Source: a bacterium
GTDB taxonomy: Bacteria > UBP6 > UBA1177
NCBI GenBank assembly: GCA_017538365.1
Contig: JAFYIZ010000028.1
Location: 52,962-116,961, forward strand
Reading direction: 5' to 3'
DNA: 64,000 nt
Part shown: one piece after another, positions 7,401 to 62,470 of the stretch
Numbering within the stretch: the stretch's first letter is position 1
Layout: every line of letters starts with the position of its first letter
The notes under the pieces: model-generated
Told to the model about the DNA's origin: nothing
Seen by the model: only the letters and a program-made list of their open reading frames with translations
Database searches by the model: none
Made by a program: the position numbers and the translations under genes

Positions 7401-8553
7401 CAATGTCGGAATGAACGACGAATTTGTCGAACAGCTCGCAAAAAGGGAAAATTACGGCTGGACTTCTTGGGACTGCTACAGACGGCTGATCCAGACCTGG
7501 GGCATGAATTTCGGTATCGACCGCGACTTGTTTGATGCAGTCATCGCCGATTTCAAAAAGGTTTACAAAGTCGAGAAAAAGATCGGTTTCAAGCCTGAAG
7601 TCATGAAACTTGTAGCCAAAGAATACATGAAGATTCTTGAAAGCCAGAAAGTGAAATTCGAGCAGAATCTCCACAAACAGCTTTTCACTTCGATCCACGC
7701 GGTTTTCGATTCGTGGAATTCGCGCCGTGCCCTTGTTTACCGCGACAAACTCCACATTGCAAGCGAGTGGGGAACTGCGGTCATCGTTCAGAAAATGGTG
7801 CTCGGAAACATCAACTACGACTCCGGAACGGGTGTTGTTTTCACGCGGGAACCCAACGGCAGAGGCAGAAAGGTATGTCTTTACGGCGATTTCGTAATGT
7901 GTTCGCAGGGTGAAGACATCGTCGGCGGTCTTGTTCACCCGTATCCGGTTTCGGAAAAGCAGAGACTTGAGATGAAAAACGCGCCTGATATCAGTATGGA
8001 AAAAGATTTTCCTGAAATATATTCGGCACTTAACGATATTTCAGTCGAACTTATCAACAAGCGCGGTTTCGGCCATCAGGAGATTGAATTCACCTTTGAA
8101 ACCTCGAAAAAACAGGATCTTCACATTCTCCAGATCCGTTCGTACCACCAGAACGACCTCATGCAGGAAGAGCTTGTTCCCGACAATCTGCCGCTGATAG
8201 GCGAGGGAACCGGCATCGGAAACAACGTCCTCACCGGAAGAGTCGTCTTCTCGATGGAAGACATCGAAAAATGCAAAAAACTCTATCCCGGCGAAAAGAT
8301 CATCGTTATGCGTCCCGACACCGTCAGTGACGATATCGACATGATTTTCGAAGCCGACGGACTGGTCACATCCCGCGGCGGAGCAACATCCCACGCGGCT
8401 GTTACGGCGGTCCGTCTCGGCAAAATCGGTGTCGTCAACTGTAAATCCCTCACCTTGGATGAAGTCAACAAAACCTTCACATTCGGCGGCGAAACTAAAA
8501 ACGTTCTCTGCACACTCACTATCGATGGCAGACGCGGATTCATTTACGGGTAG
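4459..8553 (+). CDS. 1364-aa multidomain protein: unknown N-terminal ~820 aa, then a PPDK/PEPS-like ATP-grasp nucleotide-binding domain and a PEP-utilizing phosphohistidine swivel domain; no PEP/pyruvate TIM-barrel domain
   Basis: The C-terminal third contains GAKGYFLKRIKEYGMPVPHGFILTTELF and LMLSVRSGSAMSMPGAMNTFLNVGMNDEFVEQLAKR, which matches the PPDK N-domain LSVRSGAxxSMPGMMDTxLNLGLND. It also has LVTSRGGATSHAAVTAVRLGKIGVV, the GGxTSHAAI phosphohistidine motif. The protein ends about 25 aa later. RBS ggagg precedes the ATG. Confidence 0.6.
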   Translation: MEVFMSGVIKTSEALKVNLAETFVAGYEFSEQEKFILSAVEKHPLLEKRMRTFFLELNHPFPNFTEVIEAYRWITLENMWVFADLEESDKLLKLLGDYFMQIFSQKLDIPQRNRLRQTIFNVLELLYKILQSSKISDEVFNSYLDITETVLADGNPGLMEASSSLKKYVAEICKDERFSARIFKMLKRVMTINLDYWKNVESFSDWLEKRTIEHGDEALEIENAILSQFPPELFTECEEGIEKAEKCEDFFKLPDYTFFTDRFRNTIDFIPTPICKIYYIFYLLDFSSMESLREYLLFDLNRTLKIVSIDDAGEAKRFITRMFDFFKPVRELFQSAILDCVKTLGKEIVKRGSAAICDHFFDAVIRFGFVYPELKGVNSDWQMIVDKNHVKNIRTWLEIIEVNPSKSTKLLSALLVNLRIGGVFISDTDLFQSDVTKFLNSQIAPAYHIARQIAVLFPVYFNEIGAEGELRKISTAIDEICHRKDLLTHFLRKQIHAESNNTHIQLAKDVFIFWLTGKKEHLQNKIPNEIYETLEPSGEMYEGLHEVARFVTSRVRGDYEALFTMKPAEVEKIIADFGAGHEVEQKKVGYLFNIYLLLKEKYYLNPGDIAKKLKKITYIHQATIDEFEAAMTAEDWKSAVRIAFKIMSALKKTVLSEEQTEGVENIYYKRHIAIGIPSMYGEYREPKFEALGMIYRMEQLVSTMVEKLVSTTKLPYISADNLRETCEILELFREGLELGGITSENFNSDLKMLEYSLVSSSFSLHQYTNIFEFFAEDLSKIVYDYFLGIHDSNLKIVLEQYIEKHNLTVSSEKDKEKIIHKKSEEFYRDIISSSFLMQQIDSLINYLLSILHGIPKSLTQEDIHMIMTYKRKSIISEIDKKDDELDNQVFFGAKGYFLKRIKEYGMPVPHGFILTTELFRRREALMKHPEIEKEIYTTISDELGILEEKTGLQYGNPNNPLMLSVRSGSAMSMPGAMNTFLNVGMNDEFVEQLAKRENYGWTSWDCYRRLIQTWGMNFGIDRDLFDAVIADFKKVYKVEKKIGFKPEVMKLVAKEYMKILESQKVKFEQNLHKQLFTSIHAVFDSWNSRRALVYRDKLHIASEWGTAVIVQKMVLGNINYDSGTGVVFTREPNGRGRKVCLYGDFVMCSQGEDIVGGLVHPYPVSEKQRLEMKNAPDISMEKDFPEIYSALNDISVELINKRGFGHQEIEFTFETSKKQDLHILQIRSYHQNDLMQEELVPDNLPLIGEGTGIGNNVLTGRVVFSMEDIEKCKKLYPGEKIIVMRPDTVSDDIDMIFEADGLVTSRGGATSHAAVTAVRLGKIGVVNCKSLTLDEVNKTFTFGGETKNVLCTLTIDGRRGFIYG

Positions 8554-8616
8554 TCTTTATTTTTTAGGAAAATTGAGTATAATAATGCGTTTTTTTTGTA
8601 TTTGCAGGAGATTTTT

Positions 8617-9661
8617 TATGAAAAAGTTTTTGACTGTTGTATTTGTTATTATTGCTGCAATGATACTTGTTTCGTGCAGCGGTAAAAATCTTGACGATTT
8701 GATTGATGTTCCTGACACAGGCGATTCCGCTGATTCTTCCGCGACACCGGAACAAAATGACACCGATAATGGCGGTGATGCAAATGAAGACACTGCCGAT
8801 TCGAATGATGATACCGGCGATTCGACGACTGACACCGGCGATTCAAATGCTGATACCGGTGATTCAACGACTGACACCGGCGATTCCGGCAACGAAAACG
8901 ATGCAGACAGTGATTCCGATGATGTCGAAGTTTCGGATATTGATATGTCGGATAACGATCAGGAAGAGTCAGGTGACGATGCAGATTCCTCAGATTCCGA
9001 CAATGATAACGACAAAGATCCCGCAGATTCAGGTGATGACAGCGATACCACGGATTCAGGTGACGACAAAGATCCCGCTGATTCCGGAGATGAGAGCGAT
9101 CCCGCAGATTCAGGTGACGACAGCGATACCACCGATTCGGGTGATGATAACGATACCGATTCAGGCGAAAATCAGCAGAAATGCACTGAAATCACTCTCA
9201 TTAATGCTGATCAACTCAGCTACAATAAAGAGTCTTCAACTAGTCACGTATTCAAAACGACATACACTCCTAACACTGGTTCAAATGATAATTTATACAT
9301 TAAAATTTTTGGTTCCTACACGGATAATTATTCCGATAATTACTCGTTGGCTGGAACGAACTGGAAGGATGACAAAGGATATAACATGGCAAACGGAGTT
9401 TTCGTATATGTTTACGAAAACGAATACTGTGACTACAACGGCAGCAACTGCTCCCATAGCAAAATGTACTTCCAGAGAAAGGGAAATGTCGATGTATCAT
9501 CGATGCAAGTCAATAATTTCGGAACAAACATTTTTTACGCAGATCTTGACGGCGTAGAACTTGAAGAAGTCTCAATCAACGGTGCAAACCAATCAATACC
9601 CAAAGAAGGTGGAGAATGTCTTAAAATCAAGGATACAGAGGTTCATTATCAGTGGTATTAA
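8617..9661 (+). CDS. Lipoprotein with a long acidic D/S/T/G tandem-repeat region (DTGDS / DPADSGDDSDTTDSGDD repeats) and a C-terminal globular domain
   Basis: ATG at 8617 after RBS gcaggaga. Signal and lipobox MKKFLTVVFVIIAAMILVSCSG. The track ORF start at 8429 overlaps the upstream gene and I rejected it. Confidence 0.6.
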
Positions 9662-10396: not shown

Positions 10397-11395
10397 CTAT
10401 TCGCCCTGATTCTGGAGTTCTTTGATTTTTTCTTTGAGAGCTTTTTCTCTTTCCCAGATCTCTTTGAGCTGTTTTCTTGCCTCTTCGTCAGCCTTTTTGG
10501 TGTCTTCGATGAGTTTTTTAAGTCTGTCTCTTTCCTTGTTTTCAGCTACGAGTTCGTCCGGAGTGATGTGAACGCCGTCGATAATGTAGAAGTTGAAGGA
10601 AAGCGGCTGGTCGGGATCCCACTCTTCGGGAATGTCCTTTACGACCGATTTGAAAACCTTTACGGAGTTGGGAAGGAGCGAAGTTCTGAGACCTTCATAT
10701 CTCATATCGGTGACAGGAAGGAAGTTCTCTGCATAGATTACGTCGCCGTTTTTATCTTTGAAACGGACTCTGATGCCGACTCTGATCATATCAAGGTCGC
10801 TGCTGCCGTTGAGGATCGTTCCGGTAAGTTCTGCAAAACCGGGGCGGTCGGGAATCTTTTTACCAGTAATATCATCGATTTTGATGAGTCCTTTGTAGTT
10901 TTTGAGCAGGTTTGCAAGTCTTGCCTGTTCTGCATCACGCTCGGTGATTTCAGCCATAAGAGTCTGAAGTTCGACTTTGAAAGCTTCTCCTTCCTTTACG
11001 ACTCTGACCGTGAAGATGAGCGTTGCGTCTTCATTCATAACGCCTGCCATACGACCCATGTTAGCCGTCTGACCGGTAGCTTCGATGAAAGCCTTGGTTT
11101 CTGCGTCGATAACGATATTTGCACGCGAAGTTCTGATCTCAGTTCCGATTTTGCCTTTGTATGTTGTTGTTGCAAAATCTTTGAAATCTTCGAATGTTAC
11201 GACTTTTTTCATCTCGCTTGAAAGCCAGTTGTCATAAATTTCCTGCAAAGTTCCCTTCTTGCCGTCGGAAGCGTCGCGGACTGCATAAAGATAGCTCTGA
11301 ATGAAAGCGTCGACCTGATCCTGAAGAGATTTCGATTTTTCGCCGCAGCTCAAGAACATCAGCGCTGCAAGCAAGAAAAGCATCAATTTTTTCAT
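10397..11395 (-). CDS. Hypothetical lipoprotein with a C-terminal charged coiled-coil
   Basis: Likely start MKKLMLFLLAALMFLSCGEKS (lipobox). The C-terminus is ENKERDRLKKLIEDTKKADEEARKQLKEIWEREKALKEKIKELQ. Confidence 0.5.
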   Translation of the reverse strand: MKKLMLFLLAALMFLSCGEKSKSLQDQVDAFIQSYLYAVRDASDGKKGTLQEIYDNWLSSEMKKVVTFEDFKDFATTTYKGKIGTEIRTSRANIVIDAETKAFIEATGQTANMGRMAGVMNEDATLIFTVRVVKEGEAFKVELQTLMAEITERDAEQARLANLLKNYKGLIKIDDITGKKIPDRPGFAELTGTILNGSSDLDMIRVGIRVRFKDKNGDVIYAENFLPVTDMRYEGLRTSLLPNSVKVFKSVVKDIPEEWDPDQPLSFNFYIIDGVHITPDELVAENKERDRLKKLIEDTKKADEEARKQLKEIWEREKALKEKIKELQNQGE

Positions 11396-37309: not shown

Positions 37310-37325
37310 TTTTTTTTTTTTTTTT
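37310..37325. repeat. T16 homopolymer tract (intergenic)
   Basis: ggcg + 16 consecutive T + gaacc. It lies 90-110 nt upstream of the 37415/37433 start. Confidence 0.9.
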
Positions 37326-39189: not shown

Positions 39190-39870
39190 ATGAAAAAGAT
39201 TTCTTTGTTTGTGTTAATGATTTTCGGAATTTTCATGCTCTTTGCGGTTGATGCTGCGCCTGAAACGGCTCAAGAATCTGTCGAAACGACTCCGGAACAG
39301 GCAGAGCCGGCTGAAAACGCGCAGGAACCTGCCGCTGAACCCGAACAACCTGCTGAAAGTATGCAGCAGCCTGTAGAGACTGCTCCTGAGGCATCTGCCG
39401 AAACAGCACAACCCGCTGAAACAGTGCAGGAACCCGTAGAGATGTTACCTGAAACGTCTCCAGAACCTGAACAACCTGCTGAACCTGCACAACCCCGTTC
39501 TGAAAAACCGCAGAAAATCAAATATTACAGACCTTACCTCGGTGCCGGAATTCCGCTTATCGTCATAGGTTCGGTATCTTTTGCACTTATGATGCCGGCT
39601 ATGGGAACTATGGCGTTTGCCGCTTCAGACGCATGTGAAGGTAAGGATTGGGATTTCTGCGAAGAACTTCACGACAACAATAAAAAACACCACACCGCGT
39701 GGACGGTAGGTTCCGTTATGACGGGAGTCGTCGGCGCTGGAATGATCGCAGTCGGATCGTGGCTGACAAGTGTTGAAAAACCGAGAGAAAATCAGTGTGT
39801 TACACTGGAAGGTGTCGCAGTTCTTCCGACCAAAGACGGAATGTATGCTTCCATAGGTCTGGGTTTCTAA
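39190..39870 (+). CDS. Membrane-anchored protein with a Pro/Glu/Ala-rich repeat region (PEQAEPAE-type repeats) and C-terminal transmembrane helices
   Basis: Signal MKKISLFVLMIFGIFMLFAVDA. Repeats EPAENAQEPAAEPEQPAE. C-terminal hydrophobic segments. Confidence 0.5.
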   Translation: MKKISLFVLMIFGIFMLFAVDAAPETAQESVETTPEQAEPAENAQEPAAEPEQPAESMQQPVETAPEASAETAQPAETVQEPVEMLPETSPEPEQPAEPAQPRSEKPQKIKYYRPYLGAGIPLIVIGSVSFALMMPAMGTMAFAASDACEGKDWDFCEELHDNNKKHHTAWTVGSVMTGVVGAGMIAVGSWLTSVEKPRENQCVTLEGVAVLPTKDGMYASIGLGF

Positions 39871-46005: not shown

Positions 46006-46195
46006 AATTGTCCTCATTTTTAAAAATGCTCCCAAAATGCCGCAGAATTATAATGATTTCTCTAAAAAGAGCAAAAGAAACGCGATTTTTTTAAATTCGG
46101 CTGATTTTGCGGCTCTCTGAACTCTTTATTTGACTTAAAAACCGCCGCAAATAAACTTTCCCGTTTTTTGTTTTTATTTAACTTTGGAGGGAAAA

Positions 46196-47317
46196 ATGAA
46201 AGATCCGAGAATCGTAAAAATTGCGAAAAATCTTGTCAACTACAGCACGAAAGTTCAGCCGGGCGACAATGTCCTGATTGAATACCGCGACAACTGGCCT
46301 CTTCCGCTTGTTCTTGCTCTCATCGACGAAGTCAAGGCTGCCGGCGGCAGACCTTTTGTAAACTTTACCGACATGCAGCTTCAGAGAAAACTTCTTCAGG
46401 CTGCAGACGACGAATGGTTCGACACGATGTGTGAAATCGACCTTCTCAGAATGAAGAAAATGCAGGCTTATATTTCAATCAACGGCAGAAACAACAGCTT
46501 CGAACTTTCGGATGTTCCGCCGGAGCAGATGAAGAAAAACACGCAGAAATACCTCATTCCGGTTCATTTGGACCAGCGCGTAGCTCACACCAAATGGTGT
46601 ATTCTTGCTTTCCCGAACCCGTCCTACGCTCAGGCTTCTTCGATGAGCACCGAGGCTTTTGAAGACTTCTACTGCGATGTCTGCTCGGTTGACTACGCGA
46701 AAATGGACAAGGCGATGGACCCGCTCAAGGAACTTATGGATAAAACCGACAAAGTCCGCCTGCTCGGCCCCGGCAGAACCGACCTCACGTTCTCAATCAA
46801 AGGACTTCCGGGAATCAAATGCTCCGGTCAGTGCAACATTCCCGACGGCGAAGTTTTCACCGCTCCGGTCAAGGATTCGGTCAACGGCGTTATCGAATAC
46901 AACACTCCGACCGCTTACCACGGCACGAAATTCGACAAAGTTATCCTCACTTTCAAAGACGGCAAAATCGTCAAAGTTGAAGGATCGGATGTCGAGAAAC
47001 TTGAAGAAATCTTCAACACCGACGAAGGTGCAAGATACGTCGGCGAATTTGCAATCGGCGTAAACCCGTACGTCACGAAACCGATGGTTGACATTCTTTT
47101 CGACGAGAAAATCTGCGGATCGATCCACTTCACGCCGGGTGATTCCTATGAAGAGTGCCCGAACGGCAACAAATCAGGCGTTCACTGGGATCTTGTTATG
47201 ATCCAGACTCCGGAATACGGCGGCGGCGAGATTTATTTCGACGATGTTCTCATCAGAAAGGACGGAATGTTCGTTCTCGACGAGCTCAAACCGCTTAACC
47301 CCGAAAACCTCAAGTAA
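46196..47317 (+). CDS. Aminopeptidase, M29 (AmpS/PepS) family
   Basis: MKDPRIVKIAKNLVNYSTKVQPGDNVLIEY matches the M29 N-terminus. CNIPDGEVFTAP. Confidence 0.7.
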   Translation: MKDPRIVKIAKNLVNYSTKVQPGDNVLIEYRDNWPLPLVLALIDEVKAAGGRPFVNFTDMQLQRKLLQAADDEWFDTMCEIDLLRMKKMQAYISINGRNNSFELSDVPPEQMKKNTQKYLIPVHLDQRVAHTKWCILAFPNPSYAQASSMSTEAFEDFYCDVCSVDYAKMDKAMDPLKELMDKTDKVRLLGPGRTDLTFSIKGLPGIKCSGQCNIPDGEVFTAPVKDSVNGVIEYNTPTAYHGTKFDKVILTFKDGKIVKVEGSDVEKLEEIFNTDEGARYVGEFAIGVNPYVTKPMVDILFDEKICGSIHFTPGDSYEECPNGNKSGVHWDLVMIQTPEYGGGEIYFDDVLIRKDGMFVLDELKPLNPENLK

Positions 47318-47323
47318 AAATTC

Positions 47324-47386
47324 TGCCGCCGCAGTTATACCGTAATCCCGTGATCACGGCGGCGGCATAAAGAACCGGGATCCCGG
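47324..47386. repeat. GC-rich palindromic intergenic repeat element (locus D): stem tgccgccg/cggcggca enclosing CGTGATCACG, followed by CCGGGATCCCGG
   Basis: Read directly. 8-bp stem at 47324-31/47360-67, perfect 10-nt palindrome at 47349-58, 12-nt palindrome at 47375-86. Shares cores with the repeats at 54457, 56304 and 59926. Confidence 0.7.
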
Positions 47387-47483
47387 TGGCAGCGCGGCGG
47401 CTATAAAAAAATTTGATAAAATTTATTCTTGTTGTTATAAAGCGGCGTTTTTTTTGTTTTTACTTAATTTTTTGGAGTCAGAG

Positions 47484-49094
47484 ATGAAGAAATTTTTCGT
47501 ACTTACGGCTTGTCTTGTTGCCATGATTGCATGCGGAAACGGTCACGACGTGATGATGCAGAAAATGGAAGAGGCTGCTGAAAGAAACAAAGCCTATCAC
47601 GAGGCTGAAGAGGCAAAAAAGAAAGAAAAACCGAAATTCGTAGATGATGAAATCAAAGAAGAGCTCCCTGCGATCGTAGACGCGGCTGCAAAAGGCAACC
47701 TTGCGGCTGTAAAAGCTGAAATCAGCAAGGGAACTCTTGTCGATACTAAGGACGGACGCAGCAGAACGGCTCTTTACATGGCTGCTTCTGAAGGTAAAAA
47801 AGATGTTGCAGACTACCTCATCGAAGAAGGTGCAAACGTCAACACGAAGCGCGATGACGGCGACACTCCGCTTATGGCTGCTGCAAGAAAAGGCGACAAG
47901 GAGATCGTTGAGGCACTTATAAATGCGAAAGCCGATATTGCTCAGGCAGACAATTTCGGCAGAACTCCGCTTATGATGGCTGCTTCCAGCGGTTCGAAAG
48001 AGCTTGTTGACTATATGCTTGCAAACGGTGCAGACCTCAATGCAACTGACAAATACGAGCTTTCGGCTCTTATTTTCGCGATGAAGGCTCACAAGATGGA
48101 TCTTGCGAAATATCTGCTCAGCAAAGGCGCGAAGGTATGGAAAGCGAAACCTCTCGTAATCAAGGAAAAACCCCTTGTCCTCAAGATCGAAGGCAAAGTT
48201 CAGCCGGGAATGGAAGAAGTTATCGAAAATCTTGACAAGAAAGATGTTCATCTCCGCCAGAAAACCGAGCTTTTCTACGCAGTTGAAACGGGCGATCTCG
48301 ACCTTGTCAAACTTCTTGTACAGAAAGGATCTCCGGTTCTCGTAGACGATGTCGAGCAGAGCAGGGAAACGATAATTTATGAATTCGGCGGAGGCAAGGA
48401 AGAAGAACGCGATATGCTTTTCCAGAGAAAGATCACGAGAACTTCTTACGACCGCGACCAGAAAAACCTTCTTCACTACGCTGCTGAAGGCGGATATGTC
48501 GATATCATGAAATTCCTCATTTCCAAAGGCGCAAGACTTGAAGAGACCGACGGCGAAAACGTCAGAGGTCCGCTTTTCTACGTCGTAGCTCAGGAAGTCG
48601 ACCCGAAAGATCCGGGCAAAGAGGCGAGACTCGTTGCAACGGCTGATTACATCATCGAAGAAGGCAAAAAGACCTGGACGAAGAGAGTCAGACTTACCAA
48701 AAAAGAACTCGACAAGATGAGAGAGAAAGAAAAAGCTAAAAACTGGTGGGAAAAGAACCCGTTCGATACCGAATGGAAAGATGTCACCGCTCCGAAAGTC
48801 GACATTGAAGAATACGATTACGAAGGCTGGCATGTTCTTGCTCTCGCTGCAAAATACGGTCACACTGACATCGTTAAACTTCTCATAAACAAAGGCGCTA
48901 ACATCAACCACAAAGAGAGAAAAATGGGTAACACCGCGCTTATTTACTCGAGAGTCGGCAAATTCAAAGAGATGGAAAAATTCCTTCTTGAACACTGTGC
49001 GAAAGAGGGAATCAACTTCGATCACGAAGAGCTTGCAAAACAGGGCTGGAAATGCGTTGATGGAAAAGAAGTTTTCGAAAAGCCTGCCGAATAA
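47484..49094 (+). CDS. Ankyrin-repeat lipoprotein
   Basis: MKKFFVLTACLVAMIACGNG lipobox. Multiple ANK repeats (DGRSRTALYMAASEGKKDVADYLIEEGANVNTKRDDGDTPLMAAARKGDKEIVEALINAKADI...). Confidence 0.65.
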   Translation: MKKFFVLTACLVAMIACGNGHDVMMQKMEEAAERNKAYHEAEEAKKKEKPKFVDDEIKEELPAIVDAAAKGNLAAVKAEISKGTLVDTKDGRSRTALYMAASEGKKDVADYLIEEGANVNTKRDDGDTPLMAAARKGDKEIVEALINAKADIAQADNFGRTPLMMAASSGSKELVDYMLANGADLNATDKYELSALIFAMKAHKMDLAKYLLSKGAKVWKAKPLVIKEKPLVLKIEGKVQPGMEEVIENLDKKDVHLRQKTELFYAVETGDLDLVKLLVQKGSPVLVDDVEQSRETIIYEFGGGKEEERDMLFQRKITRTSYDRDQKNLLHYAAEGGYVDIMKFLISKGARLEETDGENVRGPLFYVVAQEVDPKDPGKEARLVATADYIIEEGKKTWTKRVRLTKKELDKMREKEKAKNWWEKNPFDTEWKDVTAPKVDIEEYDYEGWHVLALAAKYGHTDIVKLLINKGANINHKERKMGNTALIYSRVGKFKEMEKFLLEHCAKEGINFDHEELAKQGWKCVDGKEVFEKPAE

Positions 49095-53774: not shown

Positions 53775-54456
53775 TTCAAAAAAAGCGGTCGTTCTTTTCA
53801 GCGGCGGCCTTGATTCTACGACGGTTTTAGTTTATGCGCTGAAACAGGGTTATGATGTTTATCCGCTCACTTTTTCCTACGGTCAGAGGCACGCGATCGA
53901 AATAAAACAGTCGGAAAGAACGCTTGAAAAATACGGACTTCTGGACAGACAGACGATATTTTCGATTGATCTCACACCGTTTGTAAACTGCTCGCTTATC
54001 AACAAAAATCTGGAAGTTCCAGAATTTGCCGAAAACAGGATTCCTTCGACTTACGTGCCGTCGAGAAACCTTATTTTTCTTTCGGTAGCATCGGGTTTTG
54101 CCGAAACTCTGGGCGCGGAAAAGATTTTCATCGGTGTCAATTCAGTCGATTATTCGGGTTATCCCGACTGCCGTCCTGAATTTGTCGAAGCATTCAATAA
54201 AACGATCGCAGTCGGAACTAAGCAGGGTGTCGAAAGTGGAATAAAAGTTGAAGCACCGATTCTCAACATGTCAAAAAAGGAGATAGTCGAGCTCGGAATG
54301 TCGCTTGGAGTCGACTATTCGCTCACACACAGCTGCTACAACCCGACTCCCGACGGGCTTTCATGCGGAGTCTGCGACAGCTGCCGGCTCAGGCTTGAAG
54401 GTTTCAGACAGGCAGGATTCACTGATCCGCTGAAGTATGCGGCGCGCAAAAAATAA
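53767..54456 (+). CDS. queC: 7-cyano-7-deazaguanine synthase
   Basis: KAVVLFSGGLDSTT (PP-loop). C-terminal zinc Cys CYNPTPDGLSCGVCDSC. Confidence 0.9.
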   Translation: MNNSKKAVVLFSGGLDSTTVLVYALKQGYDVYPLTFSYGQRHAIEIKQSERTLEKYGLLDRQTIFSIDLTPFVNCSLINKNLEVPEFAENRIPSTYVPSRNLIFLSVASGFAETLGAEKIFIGVNSVDYSGYPDCRPEFVEAFNKTIAVGTKQGVESGIKVEAPILNMSKKEIVELGMSLGVDYSLTHSCYNPTPDGLSCGVCDSCRLRLEGFRQAGFTDPLKYAARKK

Positions 54457-54514
54457 CGGGATCACGAGATTCCGGTTTGCCGCCTTCGAGATTACTGGAT
54501 CACGAGATTCCGGG
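54457..54514. repeat. Intergenic repeat (locus A): direct duplication of GGATCACGAGATTCCGG
   Basis: 17-mer at 54458-54474 and 54497-54513. Shares cores CGGGATCACG / GATTCCGG with loci at 56304, 59926 and 47324. Confidence 0.7.
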
Positions 54515-54607
54515 ATTCCGAATAGTGTTTGTGGCGGCTGAAATTTTTGATTTTTTTCCCAAAAAAGCTAAAATTCCTGCCGTTGATTTTTTTTCTAGGA
54601 GGAAAAA

Positions 54608-55739: not shown

Positions 55740-56303
55740 ATGAAAATCATCCGCGTCAATAAAGATTTGATTCTCAAAGAGTTGGAACTTTCTGACGCCG
55801 AACATATCTTCAAATCAATCGATTCACAGCGCGAATATCTTGGGAAATGGCTTCCTTTCGTTGAATTTACCAAAACAGTCAAAGATTCGCTTGACTATGT
55901 CAATTCGGTCGTCACAATGCCTGAAGAATGCAAAGAGTGGCAGTTCTCTGTTTTCTGCGGCGACGATTTTGCAGGGCTTGCAGGATTCAAAGGAACCGAC
56001 AGGCTCAACCGAAAAAGCGAAATAGGCTACTGGCTAAAAGAGGAGTTCCAAGGGCGCGGCATAATGACCGAGTCAGTCCGAGCGCTCATAAATTTCGGCT
56101 TTTCAGAACTCAACCTCAACAGAATCCAGATAAAATGCGCTCCAGACAACATCAAAAGCAACAGAATTCCGCAAAGACTGGGCTTCACTCTTGAAGGAAT
56201 CGAGCGCGACAGCGAATTCGTGAGAGAAGGTGTCTTTCGTGACGCCAATGTGTGGAGTCTTTTGAAAAGAGATTCGGAATCCAGGGATTACGAGAACCAG
56301 TGA
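55740..56303 (+). CDS. GNAT N-acetyltransferase (RimJ/RimL-like)
   Basis: 187 aa. GYWLKEEFQGRGIMTESVRALINFGF, the acetyl-CoA binding motif Q/RxxGxG/A. Confidence 0.65.
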   Translation: MKIIRVNKDLILKELELSDAEHIFKSIDSQREYLGKWLPFVEFTKTVKDSLDYVNSVVTMPEECKEWQFSVFCGDDFAGLAGFKGTDRLNRKSEIGYWLKEEFQGRGIMTESVRALINFGFSELNLNRIQIKCAPDNIKSNRIPQRLGFTLEGIERDSEFVREGVFRDANVWSLLKRDSESRDYENQ

Positions 56304-56377
56304 TCCCGATTGCGGCGCGTCGAGATCCGGTTGCGGCGCTTTTCGGGATTCCGTGATTCCGGTATTCCGAGATCTCG
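56304..56377. repeat. Intergenic palindromic repeat block (locus B) filling the convergent gap between the GNAT gene and lipA
   Basis: Read directly: GTGATCCCG, GCGGCGCGTCGAGATCCGGTTGCGGCGC, CGGGATTCCGTGATTCCGGTATTCCGAGATCTCG. Same cores as loci A, C and D. Confidence 0.7.
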
Positions 56378-57250
56378 TTATTTTGTTGCGCCGCTGATCA
56401 TATTCTGGTGAATTTCTTTTGCGTTGAAGGAGCTTCTGACAAATCTGCCCGAATAAACTTCTTTGAATCCGATGGACAAACCATAGTCGCGCAGTGCGTC
56501 AAATTCAGCCTGAGTGTAGTCTTTTTCAACAGGGATGTGCTGCAGCGACGGGCGGAAATACTGCCCGATGGTCATTATGTCGCATCCTACATCGCGCAGA
56601 TCGCGCATCAGAGCATGGACTTCATCAATATTTTCTCCGACTCCGAGCATTATTCCCGATTTCGTGATAAAACCTTTGCGTTTCATGTAGCAGAGAACGT
56701 CAAGCGAGCGTTTGTAATCAGCCTGCGGGCGCACTTTCGAGTATAAAGATGGGATTGTTTCGACATTGTGGTTGAAAACATCTATCGGCGAATCAGCAAC
56801 GATATCGAGATTTTCCTTTATTCCGAGGAAATCTGGGGTCAGGACTTCGACCAAGGTTTCAGGTGATAACTCTTTGACTTTTTTAACAGTTTCGGCGAAG
56901 TGCGCCGCTCCGCAGTCGGGAAGGTCGTCTCTTGTTACCGAGGTTATTACGGTATAAAGCAAGCCCAGATCTTTTACGGCAAGCGCAAGGTTCATCGGTT
57001 CGTTCGGATCGGGAAGGGGGATGTTTTCATTGTGGACGATGTTGCAGAAGCGGCAGTTGCGGGTGCAGCTGTTTCCCAGAATCAGGAATGTCGCCGTTCT
57101 TTTCTTAAAGCAGTCGCCTATATTCGGGCAGTGCGCCGATTCGCAGACCGAATGAAGGTGGTGCAGACGCAGAATCTGCTTCATTTCGGCAACGAAAGGA
57201 GACTTGAAAGTCGATTTTTTGAGCATTTCCTCAGCCATAATCAGCCTCAT
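56378..57250 (-). CDS. lipA: Lipoyl synthase
   Basis: CESAHCPNIGDCF, FLILGNSCTRNCRFCN (radical SAM CxxxCxxC). Start chosen at MRLIMAEEM. The track ORF extends to 57340 and overlaps rlmN. Confidence 0.85.
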   Translation of the reverse strand: MRLIMAEEMLKKSTFKSPFVAEMKQILRLHHLHSVCESAHCPNIGDCFKKRTATFLILGNSCTRNCRFCNIVHNENIPLPDPNEPMNLALAVKDLGLLYTVITSVTRDDLPDCGAAHFAETVKKVKELSPETLVEVLTPDFLGIKENLDIVADSPIDVFNHNVETIPSLYSKVRPQADYKRSLDVLCYMKRKGFITKSGIMLGVGENIDEVHALMRDLRDVGCDIMTIGQYFRPSLQHIPVEKDYTQAEFDALRDYGLSIGFKEVYSGRFVRSSFNAKEIHQNMISGATK

Positions 57251-59191: not shown

Positions 59192-59355
59192 TTTGCACTC
59201 CAAAATCAACAAAAAACCAGTAATTTTTGACATAACAGAGGAAAAGTCAATCAAATTCGGCACTGCCGCTCGTGATCCCGGCAAGACTTCGGCGGCGCTC
59301 TTGTTTTTCCAATGCTTTTCTTTAAAATCTCGGCAACTTGTTTCGGGAGGACGAA

Positions 59356-59940
59356 ATGAAAATAGTTTTTGCATCCGGAAACCGCGGGAAACTGCGCGAG
59401 GCCGGAGAGATATTTTCGGGTTTTGAGATCGTGCCGATAAGCGCTTTTCCCACTTGGAATGCACCTGTTGAAAACGGTTCAACTTTTCTGCAGAATGCGG
59501 TGATAAAGGCTGAAGCTGCTGCTGCGGCGGCTGAAGGAGAGATTGTTCTTGCTGACGATTCAGGCCTGGTTGTTCCTGCTTTAAACGGTGCCCCAGGCAT
59601 TTTTTCGGCCCGTTTTTCTGCGGAAGGGACCGATGCGGCAAACAGAAAAAAACTTCTTGCCGAACTTTCCGGAATTAATGACAGAAGTGCATACTTCCTC
59701 TGCACGGCGGTTCTTATTTTTCCGGACAAAACTGTGATTGCGGCAGAGGGAAGATGTTACGGTAAAATAATTGAAACCGAGCGTGGAAACAACGGTTTCG
59801 GCTACGACCCGGTTTTTGTGCCCGACGGCTATGAAAAGACTTTGGCGGAACTTTCGGAAGAAGAGAAAAATTCTATCAGCCACCGCGGAAAAGCCTTTCG
59901 AAAATTGATCGGCGCCGCTGATCTTCACGAGATCTCGTGA
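59356..59940 (+). CDS. rdgB: dITP/XTP pyrophosphatase (RdgB/Ham1)
   Basis: MKIVFASGNRGKLREAGEIF, FGYDPVFVPDGYEKTLAEL, ISHRGKAF. Confidence 0.85.
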   Translation: MKIVFASGNRGKLREAGEIFSGFEIVPISAFPTWNAPVENGSTFLQNAVIKAEAAAAAAEGEIVLADDSGLVVPALNGAPGIFSARFSAEGTDAANRKKLLAELSGINDRSAYFLCTAVLIFPDKTVIAAEGRCYGKIIETERGNNGFGYDPVFVPDGYEKTLAELSEEEKNSISHRGKAFRKLIGAADLHEIS

Positions 59941-60019
59941 TCTCGGAATCCCGTGATACCGAAGCGGCGCAACCCTTGCGGGATCACGTAATCCCGGAAT
60001 CTCGGAATCCCGAAGCGCC
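59926..60019. repeat. Intergenic palindromic repeat block (locus C), overlapping the rdgB stop codon
   Basis: CACGAGATCTCGTG palindrome (59926-59939), then TCTCGGAATCCCGTGAT, GCGGCGCAACCCTTGCGGGATCACG, TAATCCCGGAATCTCGGAATCCCGAAGCGCCGCC. Same cores as loci A, B and D. Confidence 0.7.
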
Positions 60020-60092
60020 GCCCACGATTTTTTTTGACTTTTGAAGGCTCTTCAATATAAAGGCGCGTTATTTTTTTGTTTTATTTCTATTT

Positions 60093-60845
60093 TTGGAGGA
60101 AATTATGGCTTTGAAGCTTAGAGGCGCAAGAAAAGCTAAGAAAAAAGAGCTTGAAACGGCGGCAAATATCGTTGAAAATGACGCTTTTCAGGAGCAGGGG
60201 AAAAAGGTTGTTCTCGAACATCCTTACTTTATTTTCGGTTGTGTTGCAGCGATCGTTGTTGTTGTTATTGTCGCAATGCTTATTTCGACTGCTGTAAAAT
60301 CGGCATCAGATGCAAAATCGCTTGAATATGCCGCAGCGACGGAACTTCTTGACAAGGCTGACGATGACTCGTCGGAAAACGCTAAAGCAACTTACGAGCA
60401 GGCTCTTGCCGCTTTCGACAAAGTTATAAAAAATCAGTCCGGTTCGATGAATGCGGCTGCTTCAATGGTATTTTCAGGTCGTATTTACAAAGAAAGCATG
60501 AACAACTGCGACAAGGCGGTTGATTTCTTCAAACAGGCACGCACTAGCGGAAAACTCAGCACCGATGTCCGCTTTGTAGCTTACGAAGGCGAGGCAATGT
60601 GCTACTTCGATAAAGGCGATTACGAAAAAGCTGTTGATCTCTGGAAGGAATGGCTCAATCAGAAAACCGATATCTATAAGGATTACGCGCTTTACTACAC
60701 CGGCATGACCTATGAAAAACTCGGAAAAGCCGATGAAGCGGCTGTTTATTACAACAGATTGAAAGACGAATATCCGAAGAGCCTTCTTCTTGCAAAAATC
60801 ACGGGCAAAGTTACAACAAAAGAGCCTGAAAAAGCACAGAATTAA
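60093..60845 (+). CDS. Membrane-anchored TPR-repeat protein (YfgM-like)
   Basis: 250 aa. Single transmembrane helix FIFGCVAAIVVVVIVAMLI, followed by TPR-like repeats. Stop overlaps the next start (taATG). Confidence 0.4.
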   Translation: MEEIMALKLRGARKAKKKELETAANIVENDAFQEQGKKVVLEHPYFIFGCVAAIVVVVIVAMLISTAVKSASDAKSLEYAAATELLDKADDDSSENAKATYEQALAAFDKVIKNQSGSMNAAASMVFSGRIYKESMNNCDKAVDFFKQARTSGKLSTDVRFVAYEGEAMCYFDKGDYEKAVDLWKEWLNQKTDIYKDYALYYTGMTYEKLGKADEAAVYYNRLKDEYPKSLLLAKITGKVTTKEPEKAQN

Positions 60846-62432: not shown

Positions 62433-62454
62433 GCCGCTTCGTGCGGCTTTTTTT
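62433..62454 (+). terminator. Rho-independent terminator after the HU/IHF gene
   Basis: gccgc-ttcgt-gcggc hairpin (62433-62447), followed by a T7 run. Confidence 0.6.
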
Positions 62455-62470
62455 ATTTTTCGGATAACTC

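Follow-up and report, generated by a model that had tools for sequence, protein, structure and literature searches.

A lineage-specific modular palindromic repeat at the 3' end of rdgB

Bacterial interspersed mosaic elements (BIMEs), found in E. coli and other Proteobacteria, are made of alternating palindromic units joined by conserved linkers and are bound by gyrase, IHF or Pol I. Their units, the repetitive extragenic palindromes (REPs), are associated with RAYT (Y1 transposase) genes, which they flank. REPs have been given terminator and stabiliser roles in E. coli (bioRxiv 10.64898/2026.03.23.713779), and ribosome stalling has been ascribed to REPs lying within 15 nt of a stop codon in work cited in PMC12306157. 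REPs carry GTAG/CGTC tags and are also found inside genes (PMC3733652). Here we consider a repeat block that overlaps the stop codon of rdgB, the gene for an RdgB/Ham1 non-canonical purine NTP pyrophosphatase, in a 64,000-nt stretch of bacterial DNA (contig JAFYIZ010000028.1, positions 52,962 to 116,961; lineage UBP6, UBA1177), hereafter the window. The block comprises two modules of ~51 nt and is a lineage-specific modular palindromic repeat. It is probably one locus of a lineage-specific mosaic family resembling REPs and BIMEs, in which the last hairpin together with a U8 tract would serve as a terminator or 3' stabiliser. Comparison with related genomes indicates that modules added beside a pre-existing GC clamp now encode the tail of RdgB and its stop codon.

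The rdgB open reading frame (ORF; 59356..59940, forward strand; 194 codons plus TGA, with PF01725 homologues) starts with ATG at 59356 and ends CAC GAG ATC TCG TGA, with the stop codon (59938-59940) carried by the 14-nt palindrome CACGAGATCTCGTG (59926..59939). The sequence around it is modular. Each module consists of a ~40-nt cassette of four or five imperfect tandem octamers (CGNRATCN) that ends in CCCGAA, followed by a 7-nt all-GC clamp, GCGSCGC; within the octamer CG and AT are fixed, and the remaining four positions are free. Three clamps start at 59912, 59964 and 60015. Their centre base alternates between C and G, so that neighbouring clamps are reverse complementary and can close a hairpin around each cassette. 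Clamp 1 (GCGCCGC, 59912..59918) lies within the rdgB codons for G-A-A and is complementary to clamp 2. After a single T (59919), cassette 1 (59920..59963) reads GATCTTCA, the octamers CGAGATCT CGTGATCT CGGAATCC CGTGATAC, and CGAA. Clamp 2 (GCGGCGC, 59964..59970) is able to pair with clamp 1 or with clamp 3. Cassette 2 (59971..60014) was delimited by the repeat and octamer analyses and reads the linker AACCCTTG, the octamers CGGGATCA CGTAATCC CGGAATCT CGGAATCC, and CGAA. Clamp 3 (GCGCCGC, 60015..60021) closes with clamp 2 a hairpin over 59964-60021, which appears both in the minimum free energy (MFE) fold and in a scan for hairpins followed by T-runs. Module junctions recur as well: ATCCCGAA runs into a clamp, and a clamp runs into AA(C/T)(C/G)C or into AAAGAAATCCCGA.

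Beyond clamp 3, a spacer (CCACGA, 60022-60027) leads to the T8 tract TTTTTTTT (60028..60035, forward strand), which thus lies 6 nt past the clamp as a putative terminator U-tract and overlaps a -35-like TTGACT. The latter belongs to a promoter-like TTGACT-16 nt-TATAAA (60034..60061, forward strand) ahead of a tetratricopeptide repeat (TPR) gene with its ATG at 60105. This element is kept in all 14 relatives compared, including one with an empty repeat site (L215), and would be the promoter of the TPR gene; a consensus promoter scan does not list it because TATAAA has no T at position 6. The original prediction had described the palindrome as a perfect 14-nt sequence encoding the last rdgB codons and the stop, followed by three further family units (GGAATCCCG, GCGGGATCACG, TAATCCCGGAATCTCGGAATCCCG) and a T8 run, and all of these are found where it placed them. 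It located the block correctly and took it as too short: the repeat spans clamp 1 (59912) to clamp 3 (60021), and the repeat-encoded end of rdgB, rightly recognised as such, begins not with the palindrome but 14 nt upstream of it, at GCGCCGC (59912).

The palindrome alone was tried as a significant feature and rejected, the window containing five perfect 14-nt palindromes against ~4.2 expected. Runs of at least two octamers, by comparison, occur six times in the window against a mean of 0.57 (maximum 3) in 200 shuffles, and a two-unit run was encountered only once across 76 unrelated rdgB loci. Allowing up to one mismatch, GGAATCCCG has 31 matches against 14.5 +/- 4.0 expected. A repeat search aligns 59928-59970 with 59979-60021 as direct copies of 43 nt that are 79% identical, and Tandem Repeats Finder (TRF) reports period-8 arrays at 59931-59957 and 59979-60012, with units 73-78% alike. 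The same block is present, identical, in three independent assemblies that encode an identical RdgB (L209-L211); it is therefore no assembly artefact and is stable within the species. Searching the whole window with Rfam 15 at the gathering threshold returned two tRNAs only and no family matching the block, and the best local matches over 59700-60200 at E <= 10 had E >= 0.31, far under gathering scores.

How far does the repeat reach into the protein? Matches to RdgB/Ham1 structures in the PDB span residues 1/2 to 183/187 and extend no further towards the C-terminus, and distant genomic relatives match residues 1-184/185. Clamp 1 starts in codon 186, in frame. The ORF therefore passes through the clamp and 2.3 octamers, and residues 186-194 (GAADLHEIS) together with the TGA are repeat sequence (59911..59940, forward strand), a tail that is missing in relatives without cassettes. 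The comparison covers 14 congeners from an uncultured lineage known only through ruminant-gut metagenome-assembled genomes, with flanks of 84-90% nucleotide identity, which carry zero, one, two or three modules at the rdgB site.

At one end of this series stands L215, where clamp and T-tract are both absent and the ORF enters the promoter-like element (10560-10600): it crosses TTGACT..TATAAA, takes the TAA of the putative -10 box as its stop codon and ends in KLLTFKGSSL. A single clamp with the T-tract directly after it is seen in L213 and L214, at the position of clamp 1, with the tails GAAKFF and SRAAHFF, respectively. One octamer cassette is present in L002, two cassettes in the window and in L201, L204, L216, L218, L001 and L206, and three in L202 and L217. 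Other cassette-less relatives end in GILNRKTAATF (L003) and IMEKLSKM (L004). The T-tract is kept in all relatives but L215. The sequence of L216 equals that of L214 plus 120 nt placed between two direct copies of GCGCCGC, the outer flanks being identical. At least two kinds of cassette, built of octamers or of nonamers, occupy the rdgB site between the same clamps, along with short linkers, and some clamps in L202, L217 and L218 are direct rather than alternating.

RdgB tails follow this module content. In all relatives with an octamer cassette after clamp 1 the tail is AADLH(G/E)I.. or a variant of it; where a nonamer cassette begins after the stop codon, the tail is IMSRLQDF, resembling those of distant relatives. 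Overall, RdgB ranges from 191 to 197 residues and has six or more different tails. The proposal that a repeat had been inserted at, or co-opted as, the rdgB terminus agrees with these data. In the comparison of C-termini that the original prediction had suggested, cassette-less relatives have unrelated tails, and conservation of the same coding sequence in relatives lacking the repeat, which would speak against the proposal, is the opposite of what was found. Judged from these sequences, the nine-residue tail is dispensable and is encoded by the repeat modules.

The block is not alone. A survey of the window and of the syntenic loci of relatives shows four further family loci in the window, three of which touch stop codons; the five loci, within 13 kb of the window, share clamps and octamer skeleton. 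Locus A (47325..47401) starts 8 nt past the stop of the gene at 46184-47317 and reads GCCGCCGC, AGTTATAC CGTAATCC CGTGATCA, CG and GCGGCGGC, then CCGGGATCCCGG and again GCGGCGGC. Just downstream of it lies a gene for an ankyrin-repeat protein (47454-49094), unusual for a free-living gut bacterium, with partial matches to Legionella Ank effector models that are well below cut-offs. Locus B (54439..54538) has a clamp in the last queC codons, octamers from the base after TAA (54457), a GCCGCC..GGCGGC hairpin, and T5 and T7 runs. Locus D (56270..56394) is situated between the convergent genes for a GNAT acetyltransferase and lipA, where the octamers overlap the GNAT stop codon (56301-56303) and a clamp GCGCCGC (56388) falls in the last lipA codons. 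A small copy, GCCGC TCGTGATCCCGG CAAGACTTC GGCGGCGC, is found in the divergent pilD/rdgB spacer (59265..59298), which has three or four octamers in L201, L204, L001 and L002.

Among the congeners, seven distinct intergenic sites are occupied (four tandem, two convergent and one divergent); six of the seven are downstream of genes, one is in a divergent region, and most touch a stop codon. Since several overlap the last codons of a gene, the family is not strictly extragenic. The second type of cassette consists of four or five tandem nonamers, CCYTAAGGA, quasi-palindromic around TTAA and flanked by the same GCGSCGC clamps. It is found in L201 (10608-10668), L202 (10636-10687), L216, L001 (10575-10625) and L206, and also in the pilD/rdgB spacer of L218; a search for it in the window (CCTAAGGAC..) found none. 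Depending on the congener (L204, L216, L218), the GNAT/lipA spacer holds GATYC octamers with clamps, TATT octamers with clamps, CGATAT octamers without clamps, or ACGT-rich hairpins. This spacer looks like a hotspot for periodic palindromic sequence, and the differences between its arrays are turnover between species and not between strains.

As for folding, the MFE structure of a 136-nt region (-51.8 kcal/mol, z = -2.96) joins clamp 2 to clamp 3; a fold constrained to pair clamp 1 with clamp 2 reaches -47.0 kcal/mol, 4.8 kcal/mol worse. When the first modules of seven orthologs are aligned (A1), the clamp helix shows no variation and is 100% paired, and each octamer keeps its CG and AT columns constant, with positions 3, 4, 7 and 8 varying. 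In the same alignment the palindrome helix is 88% paired and two of its pairs differ on both sides, a result without significance for seven related sequences. The palindrome is lost in L216 and L218. In L204 it is imperfect: the pairs 15-28 (outermost) and 19-24 (innermost) do not form, and CGGG stands in the second arm in place of CGTG. Clamps vary by locus and lineage and yet remain complementary (GCCGCCGC/GCGGCGGC, GCCGCC/GGCGGC, GCGGCC/GGCCGC, CGCGCC/GGCGCG), the strongest indication that pairing, or else inverted symmetry, is important.

The clamp-to-clamp hairpins of the family measure 55-60 nt and enclose a large interior with a stem of 7 bp; REPs are imperfect palindromes of 20-40 nt that form one stem-loop. 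All-GC stems of 5 bp followed by a T-run occur six times in the window, and four of these are family loci. At rdgB, the hairpin of clamps 2 and 3 combines a 7-bp all-GC stem with an interior of 44 nt, is separated from U8 by 6 nt, and is not listed by a terminator consensus scan, which takes loops of 3-8 nt. The only compact canonical intrinsic terminator in 44-64 kb is GCCGC TTCGT GCGGC plus T7 at 62433-62457, with a stem like a short family clamp.

The comparison with relatives shows that an older lone clamp stood at the 3' end of rdgB, just upstream of the T-tract and of the promoter-like element of the next gene, and that two modules were added next to it in the present species. Changes in module number may have come about by duplication, deletion or recombination between short direct clamps, and not through a dedicated transposase. 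In the transcript, the hairpin formed by clamps 2 and 3, 6 nt before U8, could act as an intrinsic terminator and/or as a block to 3' exonucleases, and would in this way insulate rdgB from the downstream TPR operon. It is also possible that a hairpin straddling the rdgB stop codon slows termination, as happens in E. coli when a REP is no more than 15 nt from the stop. The last clamp hairpin and its U8 are, from their arrangement and from the roles of REPs in E. coli, a putative terminator or 3' stabiliser.

Several observations weigh against this picture. Zero to three modules are all tolerated among the congeners, which argues against a strongly selected function. When the variable octamer bases were shuffled within their position class, folding energy did not change (mean z 0.0, n = 24 arrays), giving no sign of a selected structure inside the cassettes. 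The geometry of the clamp 2:3 hairpin, with its 44-nt interior and 6-nt spacer, is atypical for an intrinsic terminator, and L218 ends in two direct clamps that are unable to pair with each other. L213 and L214 have the T-tract after a lone clamp that forms no hairpin, so that the tract alone is no evidence of a terminator. Moreover, the GTAG/CGTC tags of classical REPs are lacking, and one family site sits in a divergent promoter region (pilD/rdgB).

A broader interpretation would place the octamer cassettes in a wider, undescribed class of imperfect arrays in which CpG recurs at 8-nt intervals, AT follows 4 nt after it and the remaining four positions are free, an assignment that we consider unlikely. 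Scanning for four CGNNATNN units plus CG gave matches in at least 120 metagenome stretches (L081-L200) and 61 matches in a viral collection (L219-L279). Many of these are imperfect arrays with fixed CG and AT (for example, L117 8925-8958, L146 3536-3569, and L236 with five arrays in 14 kb), others perfect microsatellites. Their hosts are metagenome contigs of ~50% GC, many of rumen type, as well as viral contigs. Among the matches listed, 42 arrays lie between co-directional ORFs, most of them beginning no more than 10 nt past the upstream stop; these read CGNNATAA on the sense strand, with A at position 7 in 71% of units. Also among the matches listed, complementary GC clamps accompany 10 of 124 arrays (~8%) against 1.3 expected by permutation. 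Because the search pattern itself imposes CG and AT, their fixation is not established as general outside the lineage of the window, and an ATAA-anchored period-8 control in the viral contigs was swamped by AT-rich low-complexity DNA. We know of no described family like these CG/AT octamer arrays. Were such arrays made or maintained by a dedicated mechanism, a new kind of intergenic element would be represented in this lineage by the rdgB block, which would then not be a REP analogue. Candidate mechanisms are a protein that binds the arrays, a factor that binds RNA at intercistronic junctions, and a specific process that generates repeats.

Could the cassettes instead act as DNA? In that case they would be arrays for a small dimeric protein that binds successive 8-bp boxes cooperatively, in the manner of MetJ on tandem met boxes or of ParG on parH, and reads only CG and AT, with clamps and T-run incidental. 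The invariance of CG and AT across orthologs, with positions 3, 4, 7 and 8 free and carrying no structural signal, would agree with such binding. Orthologous sites, and contigs that are unrelated, keep the CG..AT.. skeleton around differing cores (GATC, TATT, ATAT), and the tandem 8-bp palindromic format is that of met-box arrays. The sites, however, are mostly at gene 3' ends and not in promoters, and a specificity of four bases in eight would be very low. The metagenome arrays are biased with respect to the transcribed strand, which speaks for an effect in RNA or of base composition and less for a protein that binds DNA symmetrically, and concerted evolution among units could equally have fixed CG and AT. 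On these grounds a protein-binding array appears doubtful, somewhat more so than the wider class.

The comparison of L216 and L201 with the single-clamp L214 raises a further alternative, that modules are non-autonomous elements similar to miniature inverted-repeat transposable elements (MITEs), which insert at GCGSCGC, duplicate that site and are mobilised in trans by a transposase. Both insertions lie between direct copies of GCGCCGC, and their outer flanks are identical to those of L214; modules sit at several unlinked intergenic sites. The clamps of single cassettes are inverted (GCGCCGC..GCGGCGC), though, unlike a direct target-site duplication; cassette sequences differ between loci, unlike copies of one element, and longer terminal inverted repeats are absent. 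Tandem module duplication (L217) and recombination between clamps would give the same pattern, and a transposase was not seen among the annotated neighbours in the window, a survey that was not exhaustive. Mobility of this kind is improbable.

The complementarity of clamp 2 to both clamp 1 and clamp 3 would also suit a translation-coupled attenuator. Without a ribosome at the rdgB stop, clamps 1 and 2 would pair, clamp 3 would be left free and transcription would read through; a terminating ribosome would melt that helix and let clamps 2 and 3 pair before U8, causing a stop. Clamp 1 and the 5' half of the first hairpin are indeed within the rdgB ORF, and the two constrained folds differ by only 4.8 kcal/mol. 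Yet the arrangement is not conserved, with zero to three modules and direct clamps in some congeners (L202, L217, L218), the 2:3 pairing is already the MFE one without a ribosome, and a promoter-like element, itself conserved, precedes the gene downstream. A switch of this kind is very improbable. Least probable of all is an ordinary microsatellite or variable-number tandem repeat, generated by replication slippage of an 8-nt unit without family or function and abutting the stop codon by chance: the TRF arrays and the differences in unit and module number between species fit it, but it is largely refuted already by the complementary GC clamps that bound the arrays, and it also has to face units that match at only 73-78% and differ at defined positions, the same architecture at four other window loci and seven congener sites, a second cassette type (9-nt unit) sharing the clamps, and a block of unvarying length in the three assemblies of the same species.

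The allele series at rdgB (empty, single clamp, one, two and three modules) shows how the dispensable end of a housekeeping gene can be overwritten by an intergenic repeat, selfish or neutral, that also provides the stop codon. It may in addition illustrate the rise of a terminator-like hairpin where there had been none. The grammar of the repeat, in which a GC clamp is combined with octamers of constant CG and AT, is unusual and is found here in an uncultured ruminant-gut lineage. For annotation, such repeats move predicted stop codons and C-termini between close relatives.

Some other features of the window may be recorded. Among 4-nt palindromes across the window, GGCC is strongly under-represented (observed/expected 0.30), followed by CTAG (0.45) and GTAC (0.50), which suggests restriction-modification pressure, for example from a HaeIII-like system; GATC avoidance, a Dam-type explanation, was rejected, its observed/expected ratio of 0.78 being unremarkable. 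Tandem repeats of 21/42 nt and 27/54 nt (GAYRAYACCGSMGATTCA-like) at 8783-9158 lie in the ORF at 8429-9661, where their product is probably a repeat domain rich in Asp/Ser/Thr. At 39337-39494, a coding region contains a 9-nt repeat and 2.3 copies of a 63-nt tandem repeat, with an apparently Pro/Glu/Ala-rich product, and a perfect T16 homopolymer occupies 37310-37325.

Among known repeat systems, the met-box arrays of MetJ and the parH operator of ParG are 8-bp-periodic tandem boxes for ribbon-helix-helix dimers in the promoters of specific regulons. The likeness is one of form only: in both, 8-bp boxes that are nearly palindromic follow each other in tandem, and CG and a central A/T step are fixed. 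The operator boxes are well conserved and lie in promoters, whereas the octamers of the block are fixed at four of eight positions and lie mostly at 3' ends. Multicopy families of about four tandem 7-/8-nt units, often in opposite-strand pairs, have been proposed as regulator binding sites in Geobacter metallireducens (PMC2700814). They share with the present family the interspersed, multicopy, tandem octanucleotide or heptanucleotide organisation and differ in their units (GTTGCTYN, TWGTTGAY), and GC clamps are not described there; on octamer-repeat families, the literature turned up only these unrelated Geobacter examples. The STAR elements of Staphylococcus aureus have a short GC-rich motif every ~40-60 nt in intergenic regions of a lower-GC genome (PMC3532100). 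A recurring GC-rich motif and a repeat number that varies between strains or species are common to both, but STAR elements are direct repeats with non-periodic spacers, while the block has inverted clamp pairs and periodic octamer spacers. Rickettsia palindromic elements (RPEs) are 100-150 bp in-frame internal insertions of conserved sequence. Like these, and like intragenic REPs, the block would be a selfish palindromic repeat in or at the end of an ORF that adds translated residues and leaves the protein intact; unlike RPEs, it supplies only a nine-codon terminal tail plus the stop, and its cassette sequences are unconserved.

The closest resemblance in the preferred reading is to REPs and BIMEs. 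The block contains short GC-rich palindromic units that alternate in orientation, with few linker or cassette types, and its family is interspersed mainly after genes, in tandem and convergent arrangements, with a unit number that varies between related genomes. Within the window and at the congener sites the family is multicopy and interspersed around a shared consensus, as REPs are. It departs from REPs in that GTAG adjoins none of the clamps and CGTC is confined to locus D and its orthologs, within GCGGCGCGTCG; in that the paired part is only the 7-nt clamp; and in that most of each module is a periodic octamer or nonamer array with no REP counterpart. As in BIMEs, the clamps GCGCCGC/GCGGCGC/GCGCCGC alternate and are joined by recurrent linkers, and the number of units differs among the 14 congeners.

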